DNA from: Escherichia phage vB_EcoM_phAPEC6
Length of the DNA: 64,000 bases
Sequence record: MK817115.1
Strand: one strand, 5' to 3'
Made by a program: the position numbers and the translations under genes. A model generated the notes under the pieces. That model was not told where the DNA came from and searched no databases. It worked only from the letters and a program-made list of their open reading frames with translations. This document shows, in pieces, positions 5,492 through 31,605 of this stretch (position 1 is the first letter of the stretch; every line of letters starts with the position of its first letter).

Positions 5492-5523
5492 AAAAAAGGG
5501 AGAACTGATGTTCTCCCTTTTCG
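5492..5523. terminator. Bidirectional intrinsic terminator between convergent genes
   Basis: AAAAAA-GGGAGAAC-TGAT-GTTCTCCC-TTTTT. Confidence 0.7.
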
Positions 5524-5524
5524 T

Positions 5525-6454
5525 TTATACAGCCATAGGTGCTTTAATTGTTGGCATTGGGTTGTAATTCACTAATTTAAAAGAATCCATAGTGAAATCT
5601 TCAATATTAGTAATTGTAGGATCAAGCCACAATTCAGGTAATTCACGAGGTTTTCGCTGTAGTTGTTCTTTTACTTGTTCAACGTGGTTTTTATAAATGT
5701 GACAATCACCACCATTCCAAATAAATTCACCAACATCTAAACCAGTAATTTGTGCAATCATATGAGTTAGTAGTGAGTAACTACTGATATTAAATGGAAC
5801 TCCTAAAAATAGATCAGCGGAGCGTTGATGCAGAATACAGCTTAGTTTTCCTTGCACTACACAAAATTGCACAAAGCTATGACAAGGTGGTAACGTCATA
5901 TCATCAAGCTCACCAACGTTCCATGCACTTAGAATGTGGCGACGGCCATATGGATCGGACTTTATACCTTTGATTAGTTCTTGTAATTGGTCAGTTGTAC
6001 GTTTCATAACAACACCATGTGAACCAGTATAATCGATAACTTTGTATCCTTTATCTTTTAATTCTTGAATTTCTTCAGTACTGGAACTAAATTTATAATC
6101 TTCCCATTCACGCCATTGCTTACCATACACTGGACCTAACTCACCATCAGTATAACCAAGAGCAACGCCTTGATTTAGGTAATTATCTGTCCAAATAGTT
6201 TTCTTTTCTGTATCACGAGTTCCATGCAAAATTTCACAAAGGCGACGCTCATCATGGGAACCTTCAATAAACCATAGTAATTCTGAAGTCATTGCTTTCC
6301 AAGCTAGACGTTTTGTCGTCACTGCTGGGAAACCATCTTTAAGGTCAAAACGCATTTGTTGACCGATAAGTTTGATTGTTCCAACACCAGTACGGTCAAC
6401 GCTTTCTACGCCTTCATCTAGAATTTTTTGATATAGTTCTTGTAGTTGTTTCAT
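5525..6454 (-). CDS. thyA: Thymidylate synthase (ThyA/Td family)
   Basis: N-terminus DRTGVGTIKLIGQQMRFDL...GFPAVTTKRLAW and C-terminal MPTIKAPMAV closely parallel T4 Td and bacterial ThyA. Confidence 0.9.
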   Translation of the reverse strand: MKQLQELYQKILDEGVESVDRTGVGTIKLIGQQMRFDLKDGFPAVTTKRLAWKAMTSELLWFIEGSHDERRLCEILHGTRDTEKKTIWTDNYLNQGVALGYTDGELGPVYGKQWREWEDYKFSSSTEEIQELKDKGYKVIDYTGSHGVVMKRTTDQLQELIKGIKSDPYGRRHILSAWNVGELDDMTLPPCHSFVQFCVVQGKLSCILHQRSADLFLGVPFNISSYSLLTHMIAQITGLDVGEFIWNGGDCHIYKNHVEQVKEQLQRKPRELPELWLDPTITNIEDFTMDSFKLVNYNPMPTIKAPMAV

Positions 6455-7047
6455 TATTCTTCCTTGAAAAATGTAATAAAATGTTCCATATGTTTTTCGG
6501 TGGCATTGCGTGAACCAATACCAGTCCAGTTACCATGTGGTGCTGGAACGACGAATGTTTGTGTGAACTCTTTCAGTACTGTATCGAAATAAAATACTGA
6601 ACGTGAATTCATATCATAACAATAAATTTCAGGATTTTCAACTGAATCCATATACATCTGTACTGCCCATGCAGTACCACCACTTACCTTAGTTGGTGAT
6701 GTGATATTTGCAATACAATATATTCTTTCTGTATTAAGTATCTGATAACTATTCCTTGCAAGTAAGTTGTAAACATAAGAACCAGGCTTTGGTACTTTTC
6801 GCTGCAACGAGTAACATGCAATGTTTAGTTGATTTAATATAGAAATATCAGATAGAATATTGGATGGTATTTCTAATATAGTACTTTCATCTACACTATG
6901 CTCATGACCTTTGAATGAAAAATTAATAACTTCAAATCCATTATTTTTTGCATAGATAGAAAAAAGGCGGTCAGCACCTGCTGCCCCGCCACTAAAACAT
7001 ACATTAGATAAACCTTTAATTGCTTCATCTAATTCATTCTTTTTCAT
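6454..7047 (-). CDS. Rossmann-like protein with SGGAAGAD motif (SLOG/DprA/YpsA-like superfamily candidate), translationally coupled to thyA
   Basis: Motif CFSGGAAGADRLFS near N-terminus; 1-nt stop/start overlap with thyA. Confidence 0.3.
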   Translation of the reverse strand: MKKNELDEAIKGLSNVCFSGGAAGADRLFSIYAKNNGFEVINFSFKGHEHSVDESTILEIPSNILSDISILNQLNIACYSLQRKVPKPGSYVYNLLARNSYQILNTERIYCIANITSPTKVSGGTAWAVQMYMDSVENPEIYCYDMNSRSVFYFDTVLKEFTQTFVVPAPHGNWTGIGSRNATEKHMEHFITFFKEE

Positions 7048-7050
7048 ATT

Positions 7051-7707
7051 TTATTTTGCTTTACGTTCTGCAAATAGTTGTTTTACTTTCTCAATAGCTT
7101 TAGTCTGTGAAATACCTTCTGGAATTTCTAGATAAATTGTTTTACTATCTTTCGGTTGTTCAACAACTTGTGTTTGCGGACGCAAGCTTGGCTCTAAATT
7201 GTATGCACGTTCATAATGTTCTTTAGCCAGTTGTTCATATTTTTGTGCATCAGAGAGAAGTTTTTCTACAATAGTAGCTTCTTCTACTTTAGTGTCTGCT
7301 TCTTGTGGATTGAATGGGTTAAAGTCTTTTACTTTACCATCTTCTTGTACTTTCGCTTGATTTTCATCTAATGCTTTGTTTAGAACATCAAGAGAAATTT
7401 TATTATTACCACCAGTGTGCATATCAATGTCACAAGTACGAACGCGACGTAGATGTTGCATGTTGTGTAGAACATCTAGCATTTTGCGTCCATCGAGATA
7501 ACCAATTTTATGCATTACTTCCCACAAATCAATATTAGATTGACCATGACCCATAACAATATCAGTTACTGCGTGAACATATGCTTCTGGTAGTGAATCA
7601 CGATAAACGATAAGGCAGTGTTCAGGATCATCTGGTAGTGAACGCCAAACAACAAAAACACGAGAACCTGTATTACGCATTACACCAACATGACGAATAG
7701 CTGCCAT
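7051..7707 (-). CDS. Hypothetical protein
   Basis: 218-aa ORF in co-directional array. Confidence 0.5.
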   Translation of the reverse strand: MAAIRHVGVMRNTGSRVFVVWRSLPDDPEHCLIVYRDSLPEAYVHAVTDIVMGHGQSNIDLWEVMHKIGYLDGRKMLDVLHNMQHLRRVRTCDIDMHTGGNNKISLDVLNKALDENQAKVQEDGKVKDFNPFNPQEADTKVEEATIVEKLLSDAQKYEQLAKEHYERAYNLEPSLRPQTQVVEQPKDSKTIYLEIPEGISQTKAIEKVKQLFAERKAK

Positions 7708-7709
7708 AA

Positions 7710-7970
7710 TTATTCTCCTTTATCTTCTTGAGTTTCACTATCTTGTGATTCAGCTTCTTCTTTAGCTGCATCTTCTTGTGCTTTAATATCTTCAAGAGCT
7801 ACATTTGCAAAAGAAACAAATTTAGATACAACTGGAGCAACCTCAACAAGTTCTTCAACTTTAAAGGTGTTTCGTGCAACAGCAGCTTCCATGATTTTTG
7901 CAGCATTGATTAGGTCTAGAAGGGTTAGTTGAATTTGATTATTTTCTTGTTCCATTTTAATACTCTCCAT
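7710..7970 (-). CDS. Hypothetical acidic protein
   Basis: 86-aa ORF, acidic C-terminus. Confidence 0.4.
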   Translation of the reverse strand: MESIKMEQENNQIQLTLLDLINAAKIMEAAVARNTFKVEELVEVAPVVSKFVSFANVALEDIKAQEDAAKEEAESQDSETQEDKGE

Positions 7971-8019
7971 GTATATTGGTACATTAACTATTATATCATA
8001 TTTTTATAAGTTGTCCCAC

Positions 8020-8053
8020 TTATAAAAGAAGAGAACGGAAAATTCCGTTCTCT
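8020..8053 (-). terminator. Intrinsic terminator after VWA gene
   Basis: 9-bp stem AGAGAACGG / CCGTTCTCT with U-rich tail on minus strand. Confidence 0.55.
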
Positions 8054-8064
8054 TTATTTAGTAC

Positions 8065-9489
8065 TTAACTACGTTGACGCTTTTTATCAGCTTCATATTC
8101 GTAGTGTACAGTCTCACCAAATGGTGCAACTTTATTTGGGTTACTGTGAATCACGAACAGTGTTTTACAGTAGTTTGGATCACCCCATGACTGCCACGGT
8201 TCACCATCAGTAAACATTACAAGCTGTTTAGGCTTGTAGTTGTCGTTCTTCATATGAACCCATACTGCTTCAAAGTCAGTACCACCACCACCTTTTACTG
8301 GATATTCCAGAATCTTACGTTCTTCGCCAGTTTTGTAATCCTTTACAGTATAAACTTCAGTATCAAAAGTCATGATACGAATCTTAAACTGTTTGAATTG
8401 TTTAGTGATGCCAAGAACTTCACTAATGAAATCACGAAGCATATCTTCAGAAATAGACCCAGAAGCATCTAGTGCAATCGCAATATCAATATCATCATCT
8501 GGTTTCATCCCTGGGTAAATTGGATTACCATAGAATGAACCATTAGAACCAAAACCAGCACCCCATGAACGACGAGAAGGACTTTGATACGTTGCATCAG
8601 ACTTCAACCAACTACGAAGTGTACGTTGAAGTTTTGAACGCCAGTCAATCTTTGGTTCTTTAAAGTTGTTAATCATACGAGCGATTTCTGCTGGTGTACC
8701 ACCTGCACGTGCAGCATTCATCATTGCTGTTTTGAAATCATCCATATAATCACGTTTTTGCTGTTCACTTGAACCACCTTCTTGACCTTCTTGTGGAACG
8801 TCATGCTGGTCAATGGTAGTACCTTTTGGTTTACCCTTACCATCTTTAATATCACCAAAAGTACCGCGATTTTTACCTTCACCTTCACCGCCGCCACTTT
8901 GTGGTTGACCTTCACCTTCACCATCTTCTTTTTGTTCTTCTTCTTCAAGAAGAATGTAAATCTCTTCTGCGGTCATACCTTCATATTTTTTATCATACAA
9001 CCATGAACTTTGGATTTTTCCAATTTTCTCACGAACGATGATTTGGTTAATGGCATAATCCGCTGCACGGTTATAACGTTGTGGATCACGCATACCACGA
9101 CGAAGGAAGTGATCGTAAGCACAGTGTAGAATTTCATGACAAATTACAGCAATAAGGTTTTCATCAGTCAAACCTTCAGTCATTTCTTTTAATTGTTCGT
9201 CTGTAACTTCAGGATGCTTTTCACGAATAGCTTCTTCATATTCTTTCTTTTTAGATGGGTCTTGAATACCCATTACAAATTCTACGTTGTAGAATAGATG
9301 TTTACCATCAACTGCTAGAGTACGACACCATGTATTATTAGGAACTGGACGTAAACGTGAAGCGAGTACACCAAAGAATGGTGCAGTTAACATCAAAGAT
9401 GTACGAGCCAGAACCAGACGATCTTGACATTCTTTCTGGAGTGCCGGAGATACTTCATTGAATCTGGAAGTAGATTTGTTATCTGACAT
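8065..9489 (-). CDS. VWA domain protein with N-terminal HExxH metallopeptidase-like motif
   Basis: HEILHCAYDH (HExxH) in N-terminal half; MIDAS-like DASGS in C-terminal half; low-complexity G/E-rich linker. Confidence 0.7.
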   Translation of the reverse strand: MSDNKSTSRFNEVSPALQKECQDRLVLARTSLMLTAPFFGVLASRLRPVPNNTWCRTLAVDGKHLFYNVEFVMGIQDPSKKKEYEEAIREKHPEVTDEQLKEMTEGLTDENLIAVICHEILHCAYDHFLRRGMRDPQRYNRAADYAINQIIVREKIGKIQSSWLYDKKYEGMTAEEIYILLEEEEQKEDGEGEGQPQSGGGEGEGKNRGTFGDIKDGKGKPKGTTIDQHDVPQEGQEGGSSEQQKRDYMDDFKTAMMNAARAGGTPAEIARMINNFKEPKIDWRSKLQRTLRSWLKSDATYQSPSRRSWGAGFGSNGSFYGNPIYPGMKPDDDIDIAIALDASGSISEDMLRDFISEVLGITKQFKQFKIRIMTFDTEVYTVKDYKTGEERKILEYPVKGGGGTDFEAVWVHMKNDNYKPKQLVMFTDGEPWQSWGDPNYCKTLFVIHSNPNKVAPFGETVHYEYEADKKRQRS

Positions 9490-9520
9490 GTATATTTCCT
9501 CGTTTAGTTAAGATAAAAGA

Positions 9521-9552
9521 AGGATACCATTAGGCATCCTTCTTGTCAACAA
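9521..9552 (-). terminator. Hairpin with U-tract between MoxR and VWA genes (terminator or attenuator)
   Basis: GAAGGATGCC-UAAU-GGUAUCCUUC followed by UUUUAUC on minus strand. Confidence 0.45.
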
Positions 9553-9563
9553 CTCTTTGTTAA

Positions 9564-10889
9564 TTAGCCAAGAGAGCGTGCTTTACGTACAAGTTCAGAG
9601 TACTTAGCGATGAAATCTTTAAACGCTGGTACATCTTTAATGGAAATCGCAACCTTATGAAGCGTGATGGTACGAATTGCCAGTACTGCCAGTTCTGCTT
9701 GAGTTGCAGAGAAGTTATGGTCTAGGAAGGTGATGAAGTTGTTACACAGTTTACCCCATTCTTCCACTGGTAGACGTTGTTCTTGCTTCTCATTGAACAG
9801 GTCGATAATTTTATAAACCAAGTTCAGAGTGATAAAGTAGTTCGCAGAAATATCCAGCGTTGCGTCGATTTCTTTGATTTCACCAGACAGAATAGACATA
9901 GTATCTGGTAGTTTAGCAACGTTCTCAACGTACTCAATGTATTCAGTTGCAACACCTTCACCAACACGACCAGCAATCATTGCACGGAACACTTCTTTAT
10001 CAATTGTCTTAGTTTTCTTGAGATCTTCGTAGCGTGCTACTGCTTCCCATGAACGTGGAGAAGTACCACCACTGTGAGAAGGATCTTGTGGACTAAGTGT
10101 GTTAAAGTACTTAGAACCAGTGTTGTTGATGAACGCAACAGTTGCTGGGTTCAAACGTTTTGCAATCGCATAATCGTTAATCCAATCTTGATGATAAGGA
10201 ATCATCTCAATGTGAGTCATACGGTCACGCAGTGGTGTAGCAAGAGAGAAAGTTACACCGCCATCAGTTTCACGGTTACCTGCTGCAAGAATCAGTGCAG
10301 TCTTAGGTAGCTTCATCTCACCAACACAACGGTCGAGGATTAGCTGATAAGACGCTGCCTGAACAATAGGCATTGCAGAGTTAATTTCGTCAAACAGAAT
10401 AACACCTTTCCAATCTTCGGACAATTTCAGAACTTTAGGTGCAGCCCATACTACCGCAGTTTCAGCTACATAATCTTTTGCTTCGGCAAGCTCAGATTCT
10501 TTCAGAAGAGAACCGTCAGTTTTACGGAAAAGCTTCTCTGGTACTGGAATACCGCGAAGGTCACTTGGTTCGATTTGAGACAAACGGAAATCGATAAAGT
10601 TAGTATCTTGGTCGATTAGTTTTGCTTCAAATGCAGCCAGTTCACGGCGTAGCTGATCAGCATTTTCAGGGTCAGCTTCGATTTGTTGTTTCATGAACTC
10701 GATTTTAGCTACGTTATCTTTACGCAGTGGGTAATTTTCATCAGCGTATTGACGAGCGATTGCAGACTTACCGATACCTGGGCTACCCCAAATCATCAGG
10801 CTATCTTGAATCATGTCAGCTAGTGCCATTGCTTCTTTAGCTTTCTTTGGAGTCAGTTTAACGTTCAGGATATCGTTTTGAGTAGTCAT
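9564..10889 (-). CDS. MoxR-like AAA+ ATPase
   Basis: Walker A GSPGIGKS; Walker B ILFDEIN; adjacent to VWA partner as in MoxR/VWA pairs. Confidence 0.75.
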   Translation of the reverse strand: MTTQNDILNVKLTPKKAKEAMALADMIQDSLMIWGSPGIGKSAIARQYADENYPLRKDNVAKIEFMKQQIEADPENADQLRRELAAFEAKLIDQDTNFIDFRLSQIEPSDLRGIPVPEKLFRKTDGSLLKESELAEAKDYVAETAVVWAAPKVLKLSEDWKGVILFDEINSAMPIVQAASYQLILDRCVGEMKLPKTALILAAGNRETDGGVTFSLATPLRDRMTHIEMIPYHQDWINDYAIAKRLNPATVAFINNTGSKYFNTLSPQDPSHSGGTSPRSWEAVARYEDLKKTKTIDKEVFRAMIAGRVGEGVATEYIEYVENVAKLPDTMSILSGEIKEIDATLDISANYFITLNLVYKIIDLFNEKQEQRLPVEEWGKLCNNFITFLDHNFSATQAELAVLAIRTITLHKVAISIKDVPAFKDFIAKYSELVRKARSLG

Positions 10890-10957
10890 GTATATATTTC
10901 CTTTTGTTGGATAAAATCGTTTAAGTTTCTATTATAGCCAATCCGTGGGCAAAAGTA

Positions 10958-10996
10958 AAGGAACTGTGTTAAAATAATTTAACTTATCAGTTCCTT
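10958..10996 (-). promoter_or_regulatory. Hairpin in long 5' leader upstream of MoxR gene
   Basis: 9-bp stem AAGGAACTG / CAGTTCCTT with 21-nt loop, U-rich 3' flank on minus strand. Confidence 0.3.
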
Positions 10997-11058
10997 TGTT
11001 ACTTCATGAATCATCCGTGTGTTTAAAAGGTAAATCTCTTTGCTGTCTTGATGTGAAC

Positions 11059-11086
11059 ATTATATCACATCGTTTCAACTTGTCAA
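11059..11086 (-). promoter_or_regulatory. Sigma70-type early promoter P1: TTGACA, 16-nt spacer, TGaTATAAT
   Basis: Read directly on minus strand: TTGACAagttgaaacgatgTGaTATAAT; consensus hexamers plus extended -10 TG. Confidence 0.6.
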
Positions 11087-11152
11087 TCACTTTTTTTCTT
11101 TTTTTTTCAAACTCACATCTTGTGTCGCTTGAAAACTTTATGTCTGATGCTT

Positions 11153-11180
11153 ATTGTATCACATCATTCTATCTTGTCAA
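11153..11180 (-). promoter_or_regulatory. Sigma70-type early promoter P2: TTGACA, 16-nt spacer, TGaTACAAT
   Basis: Minus strand TTGACAagatagaatgatgTGaTACAAT; near-identical architecture to P1, about 95 bp apart. Confidence 0.55.
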
Positions 11181-11204
11181 CATTTATTTTTAATTCATTT
11201 TTTC

Positions 11205-11585
11205 TTACATATGAATAGAAAATAACTGTTTAAAATCGTCACAACACAATGTTAATTCAGTTATTATCATTGCATCTGTCAGATATATGTACTGACCTTC
11301 AACATAATAAGGTGAAGTACATATTCTGTCAAGTGATGTAAACATTATAGAACTTTTAAATTCTCTTTGCAAGGGGATTTTTGTAAATTCATAAAGATTA
11401 TTTTCTTTACAAATTCCATACCCAAACTTGCTAAGACGTAAACCACCGCCAGTTCTGAAATTTTCAAAAATTGACATCAGAAGCATACGGTCTGTTATTT
11501 CTGAATCTGATTCATGTACTTCCCTAACTTTGGAAAGTACATTATTTTGATATTCAGTACTGTTATGTGATGGTTCTGGAAACAT
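11205..11585 (-). CDS. Hypothetical protein
   Basis: 126-aa ORF. Confidence 0.4.
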   Translation of the reverse strand: MFPEPSHNSTEYQNNVLSKVREVHESDSEITDRMLLMSIFENFRTGGGLRLSKFGYGICKENNLYEFTKIPLQREFKSSIMFTSLDRICTSPYYVEGQYIYLTDAMIITELTLCCDDFKQLFSIHM

Positions 11586-22459: not shown

Positions 22460-23086
22460 TTATGTATTAGAATAAATAATGTCCATTGCTTTTTTATGTA
22501 AATCATCAATAGTACTGTTATTCTGTACAATTATATCAGGATTGTTTATGCCAATCCAAGCCCACTCAGATTCGTGTACTGATTCTAGTTCAACTGGTTT
22601 AATATTAATATCCCCTTTATTATAAGAGGCCGCCAAACCATACCAATGTGGTAGAACACGTTGAACTTCAATAATAGTCCCATTTTGCGATCTAATCATT
22701 TTTAATTCATTTGGAAAACGGCAATCAGTGATGATGATATTTCCATCTATTTCTTGCATTGATTTTTCTAAACTGAATACCCAAATATCATTATGAAAAT
22801 ACTTACGCAAAATATTAGTACCATAATTCTGCAATACCCATCGAGGGGATACATCACTACGACCTAACTTATCACACCAGTACTGGTCCGGTTCTTCACG
22901 AATCTTACGACTTTCCTTAGTTGAACCTTCAAGCATTTCACGATCCCATCCAAAAATAGCAGCAACGGAATCTTTAAGATTAGTTGCAAATGACATTCTG
23001 GTGTAACCATTATTAATAAAAGTTTCTCCAAAAGTATCTTTACCACTTCCAATAGTACCGTTAATTGCAATTATTTGTCTTTCCAT
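22460..23086 (-). CDS. Deoxynucleoside monophosphate kinase (T4 gp1-like)
   Basis: P-loop NGTIGSGKDT at N-terminus; size and layout as T4 dNMP kinase. Confidence 0.65.
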   Translation of the reverse strand: MERQIIAINGTIGSGKDTFGETFINNGYTRMSFATNLKDSVAAIFGWDREMLEGSTKESRKIREEPDQYWCDKLGRSDVSPRWVLQNYGTNILRKYFHNDIWVFSLEKSMQEIDGNIIITDCRFPNELKMIRSQNGTIIEVQRVLPHWYGLAASYNKGDINIKPVELESVHESEWAWIGINNPDIIVQNNSTIDDLHKKAMDIIYSNT

Positions 23087-25221: not shown

Positions 25222-25698
25222 TTATTTTAGAATGTATAAGTGTTTTTCTGCATTGACCAGTCGGTGATCAATGATTTCTTTGATAACGTTCCAGTTACCG
25301 CCGCCCAAATCGGCTCCAATTTTCGGGAAGTGTACATGAACATCTCGATCAACTTTACAAAAATAATTTAGATGTTTGAACACATCGTCGATTGCATCAT
25401 AACTGACATATTTAGCACCGTCATTACCGTACATTTTTTGGGTAATACAGTTTGCAATAATCAAATTATCGTTAATTGCTGAATATGCAATTTGTCCAAT
25501 TCTAAGAAATCCCATTTCCTTTTCATATGCTTTATAATCATCATATGCCATTGGGTAACGATTTCTTAGCTCTTTTGCAAAACCTGAACCCATTTTACCC
25601 TGTGCGTTACAACCATGAGCAATTATATGTATTGCTGTTTTATCATCTGTAACAGTACTGAATAATTCAAACAGATTACCTCGGTGTTCATGAATCAT
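25222..25698 (-). CDS. Macro domain-like protein (ADP-ribose binding/processing candidate)
   Basis: AIHIIAHGCNAQGKMGSGFA resembles macro-domain N-A-A-N / G-G-G signature region; 158 aa. Confidence 0.45.
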   Translation of the reverse strand: MIHEHRGNLFELFSTVTDDKTAIHIIAHGCNAQGKMGSGFAKELRNRYPMAYDDYKAYEKEMGFLRIGQIAYSAINDNLIIANCITQKMYGNDGAKYVSYDAIDDVFKHLNYFCKVDRDVHVHFPKIGADLGGGNWNVIKEIIDHRLVNAEKHLYILK

Positions 25699-26528: not shown

Positions 26529-26930
26529 TTATTTCCTTCTATTTCTTTGAAAAGCTTTAACAGCTTTAATAATACTGTTACACATTCGTTCAGTCAAATA
26601 CTTTTGACATTCTCGTACATCAATGTACATGAACTTATCCAATTCTGGATGACTCTTACCATATCTATTAGTGTAAGTACTTTTACAAACTAATTCATCT
26701 GGTATTGGTTTGTCTTTGGCAGTATAAAAGAAAAGTACTAACCTTTTTCCCTTTCTATATGATACATCACCAAGAAACAGAAGATCATCTTCATCGATTT
26801 CGTATCCTGTCTCTTCGAAACATTCACGTACAGCAGCTTCTTTGAAAGTTTCATTACCCTCAGCTTTCCCTTTAGGTAAATCCCAATGATTCTGTCCGTG
26901 TTGTATGTCCGATAAGTATCTGACCATCAC
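26529..26930 (-). CDS. NUDIX hydrolase
   Basis: Nudix box GKAEGNETFKEAAVRECFEETGYE. Confidence 0.8.
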   Translation of the reverse strand: MMVRYLSDIQHGQNHWDLPKGKAEGNETFKEAAVRECFEETGYEIDEDDLLFLGDVSYRKGKRLVLFFYTAKDKPIPDELVCKSTYTNRYGKSHPELDKFMYIDVRECQKYLTERMCNSIIKAVKAFQRNRRK

Positions 26931-30099: not shown

Positions 30100-31059
30100 T
30101 TAGAGTGAACTTAACAACAAATCTGCTCGGTTTGTAACTTGACGATACCATAAGGAATTCATAATTTCTTTTTTAAATTTCTTAGGGTTATCATTTTTCA
30201 CACTTTTCCAAAGTTTATTAAACGTTGCTAATTTATCAACACCCATTGTATAGGACATTTCATAAAGAATACGTTGTTGTTCTTTGGTCAGATTTACTGC
30301 TTCTTTTTTCTGCATCAATAATAAAAAGTCATCATATGTTCTTTTCATATCTTGCATCAAAAGTTTGTTGGCTTGAGCTTTGGTAATACCGTTTCTGTAC
30401 TTAATCGCATCAGATTCTTTTCTACCCAAATAATGCCCATAACCTATTGTATAATTACCTTTCATGTCCTTGTAGGGATGAAATTTAGAATTGTGGAAAG
30501 GAACTCCGACTTTCCCACCAAGTAAACGGCGTTTGTTCTTGGACTGAAATTCAATTGAACCTTCAGCTTCTTTGATGTGATTGACAATTTCTGGATCATT
30601 ATAATCAAACAGTACAGTCACATCTGGTAACAATACGTTCTTCAAATCCTCTTTTGTTGGGATAAAGATACCCTGAGAAGTATGAAGAGTAGCATTTAAA
30701 TTGATATTTTTCAACAAAATAACATACTCTTCAAGTTGTACATTTTTAGGTTTAAACTTTTTAGCAATAGAATAATAACTATCACCAGGTTGAACCGTAT
30801 AATGCTTCTCGCCGCGTGGAACATCCTTTGATATTTCTACCTTTGGTAATTCCTGCTTTTGAATTTGCGTAACTTGTGGTTTTAAATTGTGTACCTGACT
30901 TTCGTCCGATGATGATACACGATCATTTTGAGAAAAACCATAAAATCCAATCGCAGCGACAAGTACTGTGCAAACTAGAACACCATAAGTAGTCTTAGTT
31001 TTCAGTGCTTTTTTCGCTTGTTTCAAAACGCCTCCTTTGTTGATTGTTAAGATGGGCAA
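30100..31059 (-). CDS. Endolysin: N-terminal membrane anchor + LysM + T4-lysozyme-like (GH24) domain
   Basis: TM segment VLVCTVLVAAIGFYGF; LysM YTVQPGDSYYSIAKKF; lysozyme motifs GNYTIGYGH and WYRQVTNRA parallel T4 gpe YTIGIGH and WYNQTPNRA. Confidence 0.75.
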   Translation of the reverse strand: MPILTINKGGVLKQAKKALKTKTTYGVLVCTVLVAAIGFYGFSQNDRVSSSDESQVHNLKPQVTQIQKQELPKVEISKDVPRGEKHYTVQPGDSYYSIAKKFKPKNVQLEEYVILLKNINLNATLHTSQGIFIPTKEDLKNVLLPDVTVLFDYNDPEIVNHIKEAEGSIEFQSKNKRRLLGGKVGVPFHNSKFHPYKDMKGNYTIGYGHYLGRKESDAIKYRNGITKAQANKLLMQDMKRTYDDFLLLMQKKEAVNLTKEQQRILYEMSYTMGVDKLATFNKLWKSVKNDNPKKFKKEIMNSLWYRQVTNRADLLLSSL

Positions 31060-31194
31060 TCACAAAGATGGCAAAGAGGCCATTTGCAAAAGCCTCATCG
31101 GACTTTCTACAGTACAAAAACGTTCTTTTCAAATGTTTAAGTAGTATAGCATATTTTTATTTTATTACAAGACATATTTACTGTAAAAACCACA

Positions 31195-31605
31195 TTAATC
31201 GTAGTAAGTTCTACCTACAGTGATGTGATATTTAAAGTACTTGGTTGGTAGTCCTAGTTCATTTCTAATATGTGTGATGAAATCATCTTCAAATTCAATG
31301 ATAAAGAATGAACCTGGATTCTTTTTATCTTTTACTATCTCAATACAAGGATTGAACTTTATCTTTACTTTCATTCCATCGTACTTTTTCCAGTACTCTG
31401 GATTTGGTGGCACTTCACCACGAACGATACTGACATGTGCTCCCCATTGTGGGTCTTTAATATCAATATGTAAGTCAGTTCTGATGAAGTACTGGTAGTA
31501 TCGAACCAACTGTAATGGAAGTTGTAGTACTAACCAGAAGTCCTTCTTCTTTTTCATAGTGCCACGTTCTGGATCATACACCAGAGTTCCTTCCATTTCA
31601 ATCAT
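31195..31605 (-). CDS. 2H phosphoesterase-like protein (LigT/Acb1-like candidate)
   Basis: Two H-x-[ST]-x motifs (GAHVSIV and YHITVG) about 73 residues apart; 136 aa. Confidence 0.45.
   Translation of the reverse strand: MIEMEGTLVYDPERGTMKKKKDFWLVLQLPLQLVRYYQYFIRTDLHIDIKDPQWGAHVSIVRGEVPPNPEYWKKYDGMKVKIKFNPCIEIVKDKKNPGSFFIIEFEDDFITHIRNELGLPTKYFKYHITVGRTYYD

Follow-up and report, generated by a model that had tools for sequence, protein, structure and literature searches.

A 64,000-nucleotide stretch of DNA from Escherichia phage vB_EcoM_phAPEC6 (sequence record MK817115.1; hereafter, the window) carries, immediately upstream of a thymidylate synthase gene, a gene whose 197-residue product is predicted to adopt the fold of the SLOG superfamily and resembles a circularly permuted DprA domain. 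Over the 4 kb tested, the window was 99.8% identical to the DNA of Escherichia phage 121Q, an Asteriusvirus and RaK2-like jumbo myovirus of about 348 kb, and gene products are named here after those of 121Q. The SLOG gene (gp567; 6454-7047) is an ATG-initiated open reading frame (ORF) on the minus strand, as are all the features of the window for which positions are given below. Its TAA stop codon (6454-6456) shares one base with the ATG start codon (6452-6454) of thyA (gp568; 5525-6454), which results in the sequence TAATG, and a Shine-Dalgarno-like AAGGAAG run for thyA lies within the last codons of the SLOG gene (overlap and run together, 6452-6465). An original prediction for this locus had described a gene with an SGGAAGAD loop that overlaps the start of thyA, and this description was confirmed by the ORF, by the invariance of residues in the loop, and by the TAATG overlap.

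The thymidylate synthase was full length (PF00303, E = 7.7e-102; phrog_160, E = 3e-116). It has 309 residues versus the 266 positions of the Pfam model, and some 40 of these form an insertion in the region of residues 115-165 (EDYKFSSSTEEIQELKDKGYKVIDYTGSHG...). Its sequence contains PPCH and FNISSY, as in ordinary dUMP-specific thymidylate synthases, and on this basis the enzyme seems to be a conventional dTMP synthase. The preceding gene, which ends 3 nucleotides 5' of the SLOG start, encodes gp566 (7051-7707), a 218-residue protein with no assigned function that matched phrog_15894 (unknown function; E = 3e-124); neighbor clustering showed that this upstream position of gp566 was kept in each of the 19 RaK2-type loci. 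The gene for gp565 (7710-7970; 86 residues; phrog_13789) is probably the first gene of the unit considered next. Consensus scans identified a terminator-like hairpin (8054-8029) followed by a sigma70-like promoter match (8017-7990), together spanning 7990-8054, and a strong terminator-like hairpin of 13 pairs directly 3' of thyA (5493-5522), between two convergent genes. These elements possibly bracket a four-gene unit, 565-566-567-thyA. A cluster of sigma70 near-consensus matches was also found at 10931-11387, 5' of an ATPase gene; one of them, at 11086-11059, is a perfect TTGACA-16-TATAAT that has an extended TG. The cluster suggests that genes 563 to 568 form an early island, transcribed by the host RNA polymerase, within the structural gene block.

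gp567 belongs to a large family with the SLOG fold

Homologs of gp567 formed 106 clusters at 90% identity, and a profile search of 1.84 billion representatives returned 2720 matches (50%-identity representatives) at E ≤ 0.001, 742 of them at E ≤ 1e-30. Given these homologs and a confident structural model (see below), the SLOG ORF is a real gene rather than a chance ORF. Across 47 aligned family members, down to 25% identity, residues S19, G20, A22, G24, D26, A77, R98, Q102, G123, T125, A128, G176, I177, G178, and R180 were invariant, and G21, L95, L96, N99, G124, and W127 were nearly so (at least 90% for the last five). The conserved positions fell into four motifs. The first, SGGAxGAD, is the glycine-rich loop S19-G-G-A-A-G-A-D26 after strand 1 (6970-6993), which aligns to SGlAkGID of DprA. 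The second, LLxRNxxQ, is the helix motif L95-L-A-R98-N99-S-Y-Q102 (6742-6765), and the third, GGTxWA, is the G123-G-T-A-W-A128 loop at a helix start (6664-6681), which corresponds to the SLOG "GGT" motif without the catalytic Glu of LOG. The fourth, GIGSR, is the C-terminal strand G176-I-G-S-R180 (6508-6522), which was aligned to VGSR/IGTR of DprA by the permuted profile described below; position 179 was S or T in the alignment rows shown. Both loops of the SLOG superfamily, GGxxGxD/E after a core strand and a GGT-type loop at a helix N terminus, were thus present, as SGGAAGAD and GGTAWA. Members P0072, P0084, P0088, P0093, and P0096 and about 10 others (255 to 312 residues) were longer by about 100 residues on the C-terminal side of the SLOG domain; seven such members were scanned against Pfam, with no match to the extension.

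An AlphaFold2 model built with the family alignment had a mean predicted local distance difference test score of 96.8 and a predicted template modeling score of 0.92, and the 197 residues were predicted to fold as a single compact unit. The model had the Rossmannoid fold of the SLOG superfamily, common to LOG, DprA, YpsA, and molybdenum cofactor (MoCo) carrier proteins. Foldseek placed structure 3imk at the top of its Protein Data Bank (PDB) matches, with no other credible match. In another structural comparison, in which 3imk also ranked first, the matches at ranks 2 to 14 were SLOG proteins throughout, namely, ShosA (score of 7.9), LOG-type proteins (7.7, 7.6, 7.2, and 7.1), YpsA (7.4), three DprA structures (7.1, 7.0, and 6.8), and the Chlamydomonas MoCo carrier (6.4). 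The closest structure, 3imk, is described as a "putative molybdenum carrier protein" of Syntrophus aciditrophicus and is a member of PF12694 (cpYpsA), a SLOG family of circularly permuted YpsA proteins in Pfam. Relative to 3imk, the gp567 model has a helical insert at about residues 45 to 90 and a beta-hairpin at residues 150 to 164. In gp567, the PGGxGTxxE signature of LOG and PpnN, with its catalytic Glu, is replaced by SGGTAWAVQ, and there is no conserved acidic residue in that region. A LOG-type hydrolase was rejected on the basis of the missing motif and the low Z score, as was, on the same two grounds, an enzyme of the nucleoside 2-deoxyribosyltransferase type (NDT, Rcl, or MilB).

In PHROGs, gp567 matched phrog_768, "DprA-like DNA recombination-mediator protein" (E = 1.3e-26), which is also its RefSeq name. 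Its sole Pfam match was to YAcAr/DUF2493 (PF10686; E = 5e-4; 20.2 bits versus a cutoff of 28.2), over just 39 residues that cover the region of the glycine-rich loop, and "DUF2493 domain-containing protein" is the NCBI name of some close relatives. When the 47 members were scanned, 16 touched YAcAr (best E = 1.3e-4) and 6 touched DprA (best E = 0.0083), all below threshold. None of the 47 matched cpYpsA (threshold, 26.2 bits) at E ≤ 0.1, and the only member that reached this model, P0210, scored 19.5 bits, which is below the threshold. The definitions of cpYpsA and YAcAr used here follow the Pfam names and general knowledge of these families. The family has no Pfam model that covers it. A search of PDB sequences with gp567 alone found no SLOG match, and an NCBIfam scan of gp567 likewise returned no match. 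Together, the fold, the structural matches, and phrog_768 bear out the SLOG/DprA-like Rossmann identity that had been proposed for this gene.

The thymidylate synthase gene of phage T4 (td) has a small gene, frd, overlapping its start, and the same arrangement is seen here. We considered the possibility that gp567 is a functional equivalent of T4 frd, either as a divergent dihydrofolate reductase (DHFR) or in some other folate-cycle partnership with thymidylate synthase. The one observation that favors this view is the position of the gene, directly upstream of and overlapping thyA. However, gp567 had no DHFR match in Pfam, PDB, or fold searches, and 121Q encodes a DHFR of its own, gp42 (30698-31210 of the 121Q genome), which adjoins RNase H about 248 kb from thyA. 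An E. coli FolA query found gp42 (E = 2e-14) and gave no match within the window. A genome-encoded DHFR fits genuine dTMP synthesis, since the methylation reaction alone yields dihydrofolate. A DHFR-like identity was thus refuted by the negative fold and sequence searches and by the separate gp42, and we give it virtually no credence: gp567 is neither a component of the folate/thymidylate cycle nor a replacement for DHFR, in keeping with the earlier view that the gene encodes a SLOG protein rather than a DHFR.

The DprA domain is circularly permuted in gp567

In DprA, the order of elements is strand-GSR, helix, strand-SGxAxGID. The GSR and SGxAxGxD loop motifs of DprA/Smf (PF02481; 3uqz, 4ljk, and 3maj) are common to gp567, which also has a sequence that fits the xxRN motif, but the GSR strand-helix unit is N terminal in DprA and C terminal in gp567, in which SGGAxGAD occupies residues 19 to 26 and GIGSR occupies residues 176 to 180 of 197, followed by a closing helix. 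The last 30 or so residues of 26 family members were placed in front of the remainder, the sequences were realigned, and the resulting profile was searched against all PDB sequences. The permuted profile matched only DprA chains, those of Streptococcus pneumoniae (3uqz; E = 0.004) and Helicobacter pylori (4ljk, 4ljr, and 5mll; E of about 0.14), and the alignments spanned the artificial junction ("GIGsRdltekgleaieslfk..vclSGGAaGaDt" versus "vVGSRacskqgaksvekviq..vivSGlAkGIDt" of DprA). In contrast, the native-order control with the same 26 sequences gave 0 matches to the PDB at E ≤ 10, and a native-order profile of 47 sequences gave no SLOG match there. Single permuted sequences searched against the PDB gave only noise. 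Pfam DNA_processg_A matches began in the transplanted GIGSR segment in five of eight permuted sequences, with a best E value of 2.7e-5, compared to 0.0083 in the native order.

Pairwise comparison of profiles was less favorable. In hhalign, neither native nor permuted profiles gave a significant match to E. coli Smf or to an enterobacterial DprA alignment, which counts against a DprA relationship; the latter alignment consisted of 16 sequences, all relatives with at least 68% identity, and the profile was too shallow. When the permuted profile was aligned to that of E. coli Smf, again without significance, the pairs IGSR/VGSR, SGGAxGAD/SGLARGID, and NLLxRN/NFPRRN were colinear over 111 columns, versus 30 columns for the native order (also nonsignificant). 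The register of LxxRN with DprA comes from this nonsignificant alignment and from the position of the motif before the GGT strand. The permutation scores were modest, but the contrast with the native-order control was clear. Since the permuted profile matched DprA and the native-order profile did not, the gp567 domain is, as judged from these sequence comparisons, a circular permutant of the DprA domain in which the first strand has moved to the end.

A putative nucleotide-binding pocket

Wang et al. found that the H. pylori DprA (HpDprA) domain takes a single thymine base of single-stranded DNA (ssDNA) into one small conserved pocket (PMC3950713). Two signatures of ssDNA-binding DprA proteins were described in that study, G-S/T/A-R (G50 to R52 of HpDprA), in which the R52E substitution costs about 315-fold in affinity, and F/L/Y-x-x-R-N/D (F140 to N144), in which R143E costs about 173-fold, and both were set against the LOG signature PGGxGTxxE (PMC3950713). 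Residues G178-S179-R180 of gp567 fit the first signature, which is conserved in the family as G178-S/T-R180, and the conserved family motif L95-x-x-R98-N99 fits the pattern of the second. By analogy with DprA, the four motifs of gp567 would converge on one small pocket holding a single nucleotide, with the base inserted and the phosphate gripped by two invariant arginines. The likeliest ligand would be a nucleotide within ssDNA. We therefore tentatively propose that gp567 is a small, ssDNA-binding, DprA-like accessory protein that captures one nucleotide of ssDNA in its pocket, a reading that we consider plausible but short of probable. As a stand-alone, circularly permuted SLOG domain of the DprA type, gp567 would share a short unit, set among the structural genes, with thymidylate synthase and be coexpressed with it, and it may serve as an accessory in phage DNA replication, recombination, or DNA protection. 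Iyer et al. had previously considered DprA/SLOG proteins in jumbo phages to be possible additional ssDNA binders (PMC7824862).

Genomic context in other phages

From its coupling to thyA, a role in nucleotide or base metabolism had been suggested for gp567. In a survey of 79 viral loci, thyA was found within 6 kb of the SLOG gene only in 19 loci of the RaK2/121Q type, in which the SLOG proteins were at least 49% identical, and in 12 of these 19 a small ORF of about 87 residues lay between the two genes, so that the tight coupling is limited to 121Q-type and RaK2-type genomes. Among the 62 non-RaK2 viral loci, 46 had a gene for a T4 gp1-like deoxynucleoside monophosphate (dNMP) kinase (phrog_139, E = 1.4e-48; PF21448) within 6 kb of the SLOG gene and on its strand. 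In about 33 the kinase gene directly preceded the SLOG gene, and the stop codon of the one often overlapped the start codon of the other. This linkage was present in 8 of the 16 non-RaK2 SLOG clusters (50% identity). The usual order in these phages was gp13-like adaptor, dNMP kinase, SLOG, and tail sheath. The order in 121Q is gp13-like, one small gene, dNMP kinase, and tail sheath, with the SLOG gene 15.4 kb further along on the same strand, beside thyA. The dNMP kinase of 121Q (gp550, T4 gp1-like; 22460-23086) is an ORF identified by tblastn (43% identity; E = 1e-49 to 2e-52) and by its RefSeq annotation; as in T4-like phages, its gene is flanked by those for a gp13-like neck protein and the tail sheath. 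The suggested metabolic role was therefore upheld in part. The overlap with thyA is specific to one lineage, and thyA appears to be an ordinary dTMP synthase; a looser link to deoxynucleotides persists in the adjacency to dNMP kinase in other phages.

These neighbors raise the principal alternative, namely, that the ligand of the pocket is a free dNMP, with dTMP and dUMP as the most plausible candidates, and that gp567 is a carrier or scaffold, a regulator, or an unrecognized nucleotide-processing enzyme. Besides the frequency of the kinase linkage, the RaK2 clade speaks for this possibility, for the SLOG gene there has no kinase pairing yet adjoins the gene for another dNMP enzyme, and dTMP is the product of one of the recurrent neighbors (thyA) and a substrate of the other (dNMP kinase). 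Conservation is confined to the predicted pocket, with a surface charge that varies widely; one family member, P0159, has its SLOG domain fused to a histidine phosphatase domain; and nucleotide N-glycosidases of the SLOG superfamily (LOG and PpnN) were among the structural matches. However, the catalytic motif and Glu of LOG are absent, none of 250 family members was fused to dNMP kinase, ThyA, or gp566, and the position next to the kinase may reflect a gene order (gp13-kinase-SLOG-sheath) inherited within a single large myovirus group. In addition, the evidence of other neighbors and fusion partners favors DNA enzymes. We consider binding of a free dNMP rather unlikely.

Where no kinase gene was present, the neighbors of the SLOG gene included DNA primase (2 loci), UvsY with a helicase, an SbcC-like nuclease, and DNA ligase with a phosphoesterase. 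In Caulobacter phage Cr30 (4288-7055 of locus L043), the SLOG gene lies between genes for an SbcC-like protein and a peptide deformylase. In E. coli, smf (dprA) divergently adjoins def; the parallel with Cr30 may be coincidence.

Fusions and bacterial copies

The domain was also found within much larger proteins. P0201 (2942 residues) contains a crAss-type virion RNA polymerase (PDB 6vr4, E = 1.6e-44), followed by the SLOG domain at residues 2579 to 2752 and then by NADAR/YbiA, and P0240 (4050 residues) has a Dda-like SF1B helicase upstream of its SLOG domain. In Klebsiella phage Pylas (NC_049444, 42467-42958), the SLOG match lies inside a gene annotated as an N4-like virion RNA polymerase, and one BFVD match was named "DNA 3'-5' helicase." DUF2493 is also fused to an SF1B helicase, HelB, in phage ICP1.

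A search of 185,579 species genomes yielded only 29 loci, mostly in Flavobacterium, Paenimyroides, and Myroides. About 20 Flavobacteriaceae chromosomes carried, in a housekeeping region, the SLOG gene followed by genes for a WYL/WCX-domain protein and DNA topoisomerase I (topA). This trio (loci L087 to L108, at approximately 6000-10100 in each) was flanked by genes for MiaB-like, sigma54-activator, and LptE proteins. Its order resembles that of smf (dprA)-smg-yrdD in E. coli, where yrdD is annotated as a putative topoisomerase, and the trio is reminiscent of the linkage of dprA and topA in other bacteria.

The occurrence of the domain in giant proteins of the injected or polyvalent type, in one case beside NADAR, is what might be expected of a counterdefense factor. 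Such a factor would bind or sequester an immune signal derived from NAD or ADP-ribose, in the manner of the SLOG domain of ThsA, or would mimic the DprA-like antitoxins ShosA and PsyrA and thereby silence host toxin-antitoxin defenses. The weak Pfam match of gp567 is to YAcAr, and roles connected with NAD and ADP-ribose have been proposed for YAcAr-type SLOG domains of jumbo phages (Iyer et al. 2021; PMC7824862). However, a PADLOC scan gave no match for gp567, the gene has a conserved core position in myoviruses rather than a place in a variable accessory island, and in Flavobacteriaceae the free-standing members of the family have housekeeping surroundings, beside topA. Counterdefense thus appears improbable.

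Weighing of the proposed function

Several further observations weigh against ssDNA as the ligand of gp567. The family has no conserved basic surface (median pI, 6.9; range, 4.9 to 9.7), and members of the RaK2/121Q type are acidic, with net charges of -1 to -7. The commonest neighbors of the gene encode enzymes that act on free dNMPs. Since 121Q already has SSB, UvsX, and UvsY, a recombination mediator would be redundant. Tight binding by HpDprA requires a dimer and at least about 20 nucleotides of ssDNA (PMC3950713), and gp567 has neither the SAM nor the winged-helix domain of DprA proteins (E. coli DprA additionally carries PF17782 and PF25317); its only matches at the family level are of the SLOG type. 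The PF02481 threshold (29.6 bits) was not reached, as gp567 had no match to this model and the best score in the family was 26 bits (P0210). Finally, because 3imk has no known function, the closest structural match transfers no mechanism. Nevertheless, a DprA-like function is the best single explanation in view of the fusions to helicases and RNA polymerases, which are enzymes that work on DNA, of the contexts with primase, UvsY, SbcC, ligase, and topA, and of the retention of the ssDNA signatures.

The DNA-related and nucleotide-related contexts could also be combined. In T4, gp32 links the dNTP-synthesizing complex to the replisome. By binding thymine nucleotides or ssDNA, the permuted DprA domain might serve as an adaptor between replicating DNA and the two enzymes thymidylate synthase and dNMP kinase, a proposal that we regard as highly improbable. 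If true, the domain would be a specialized equivalent of the link made by gp32, encoded by a gene dedicated to it.

Other features of the window and of 121Q

A gene for a MoxR-type AAA ATPase lies upstream of a gene for a DUF2201 metallopeptidase/VWA protein, the two occupying 8065-9489 and 9564-10889. The DUF2201/VWA protein matched PF13203 (E = 2.7e-34) and PF09967 (E = 7e-21); its RefSeq name, "HNH endonuclease," had no support in Pfam, and the older GenBank name, "Zn-dependent hydrolase," fits better. Just upstream of the neck/kinase/sheath block are genes for a macro-domain (Appr-1-p processing) protein (gp544; 25222-25698) and a NudE-type Nudix hydrolase (gp540; approximately 26529-26927), with a glutaredoxin gene nearby; gp544 and gp540 may be ADP-ribose-handling proteins. 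Outside the window, at 117089-131255 of 121Q, 14 genes in a row carry the annotation of an RCC1-like "regulator of chromosome condensation" or of a DNA condensation protein, and this run is on the strand opposite to that of the flanking genes.

Implications for the family

The "DprA-like" name was already on record in RefSeq and PHROGs, as was the presence of DprA/SLOG proteins in jumbo phages (Iyer et al. 2021). What is new is the size of the family (2720 matches), a permutation that keeps the ssDNA signatures, the two neighbors that are enzymes of free nucleotides (dNMP kinase and thyA), and the occurrence of the domain within injected virion RNA polymerases and helicase-containing giant proteins. 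For this family, no literature on the permutation, the linkage to dNMP kinase, or the fusions to virion RNA polymerase was found in a search whose coverage did not extend to the main SLOG classification paper (Burroughs et al. 2015). Because the DprA-like name came first, the outcome is an improved annotation rather than a surprise, and its interest is modest. Identification of the ligand, however, would annotate thousands of phage proteins and would reveal whether the target of a minimal DprA pocket is DNA or free nucleotides.

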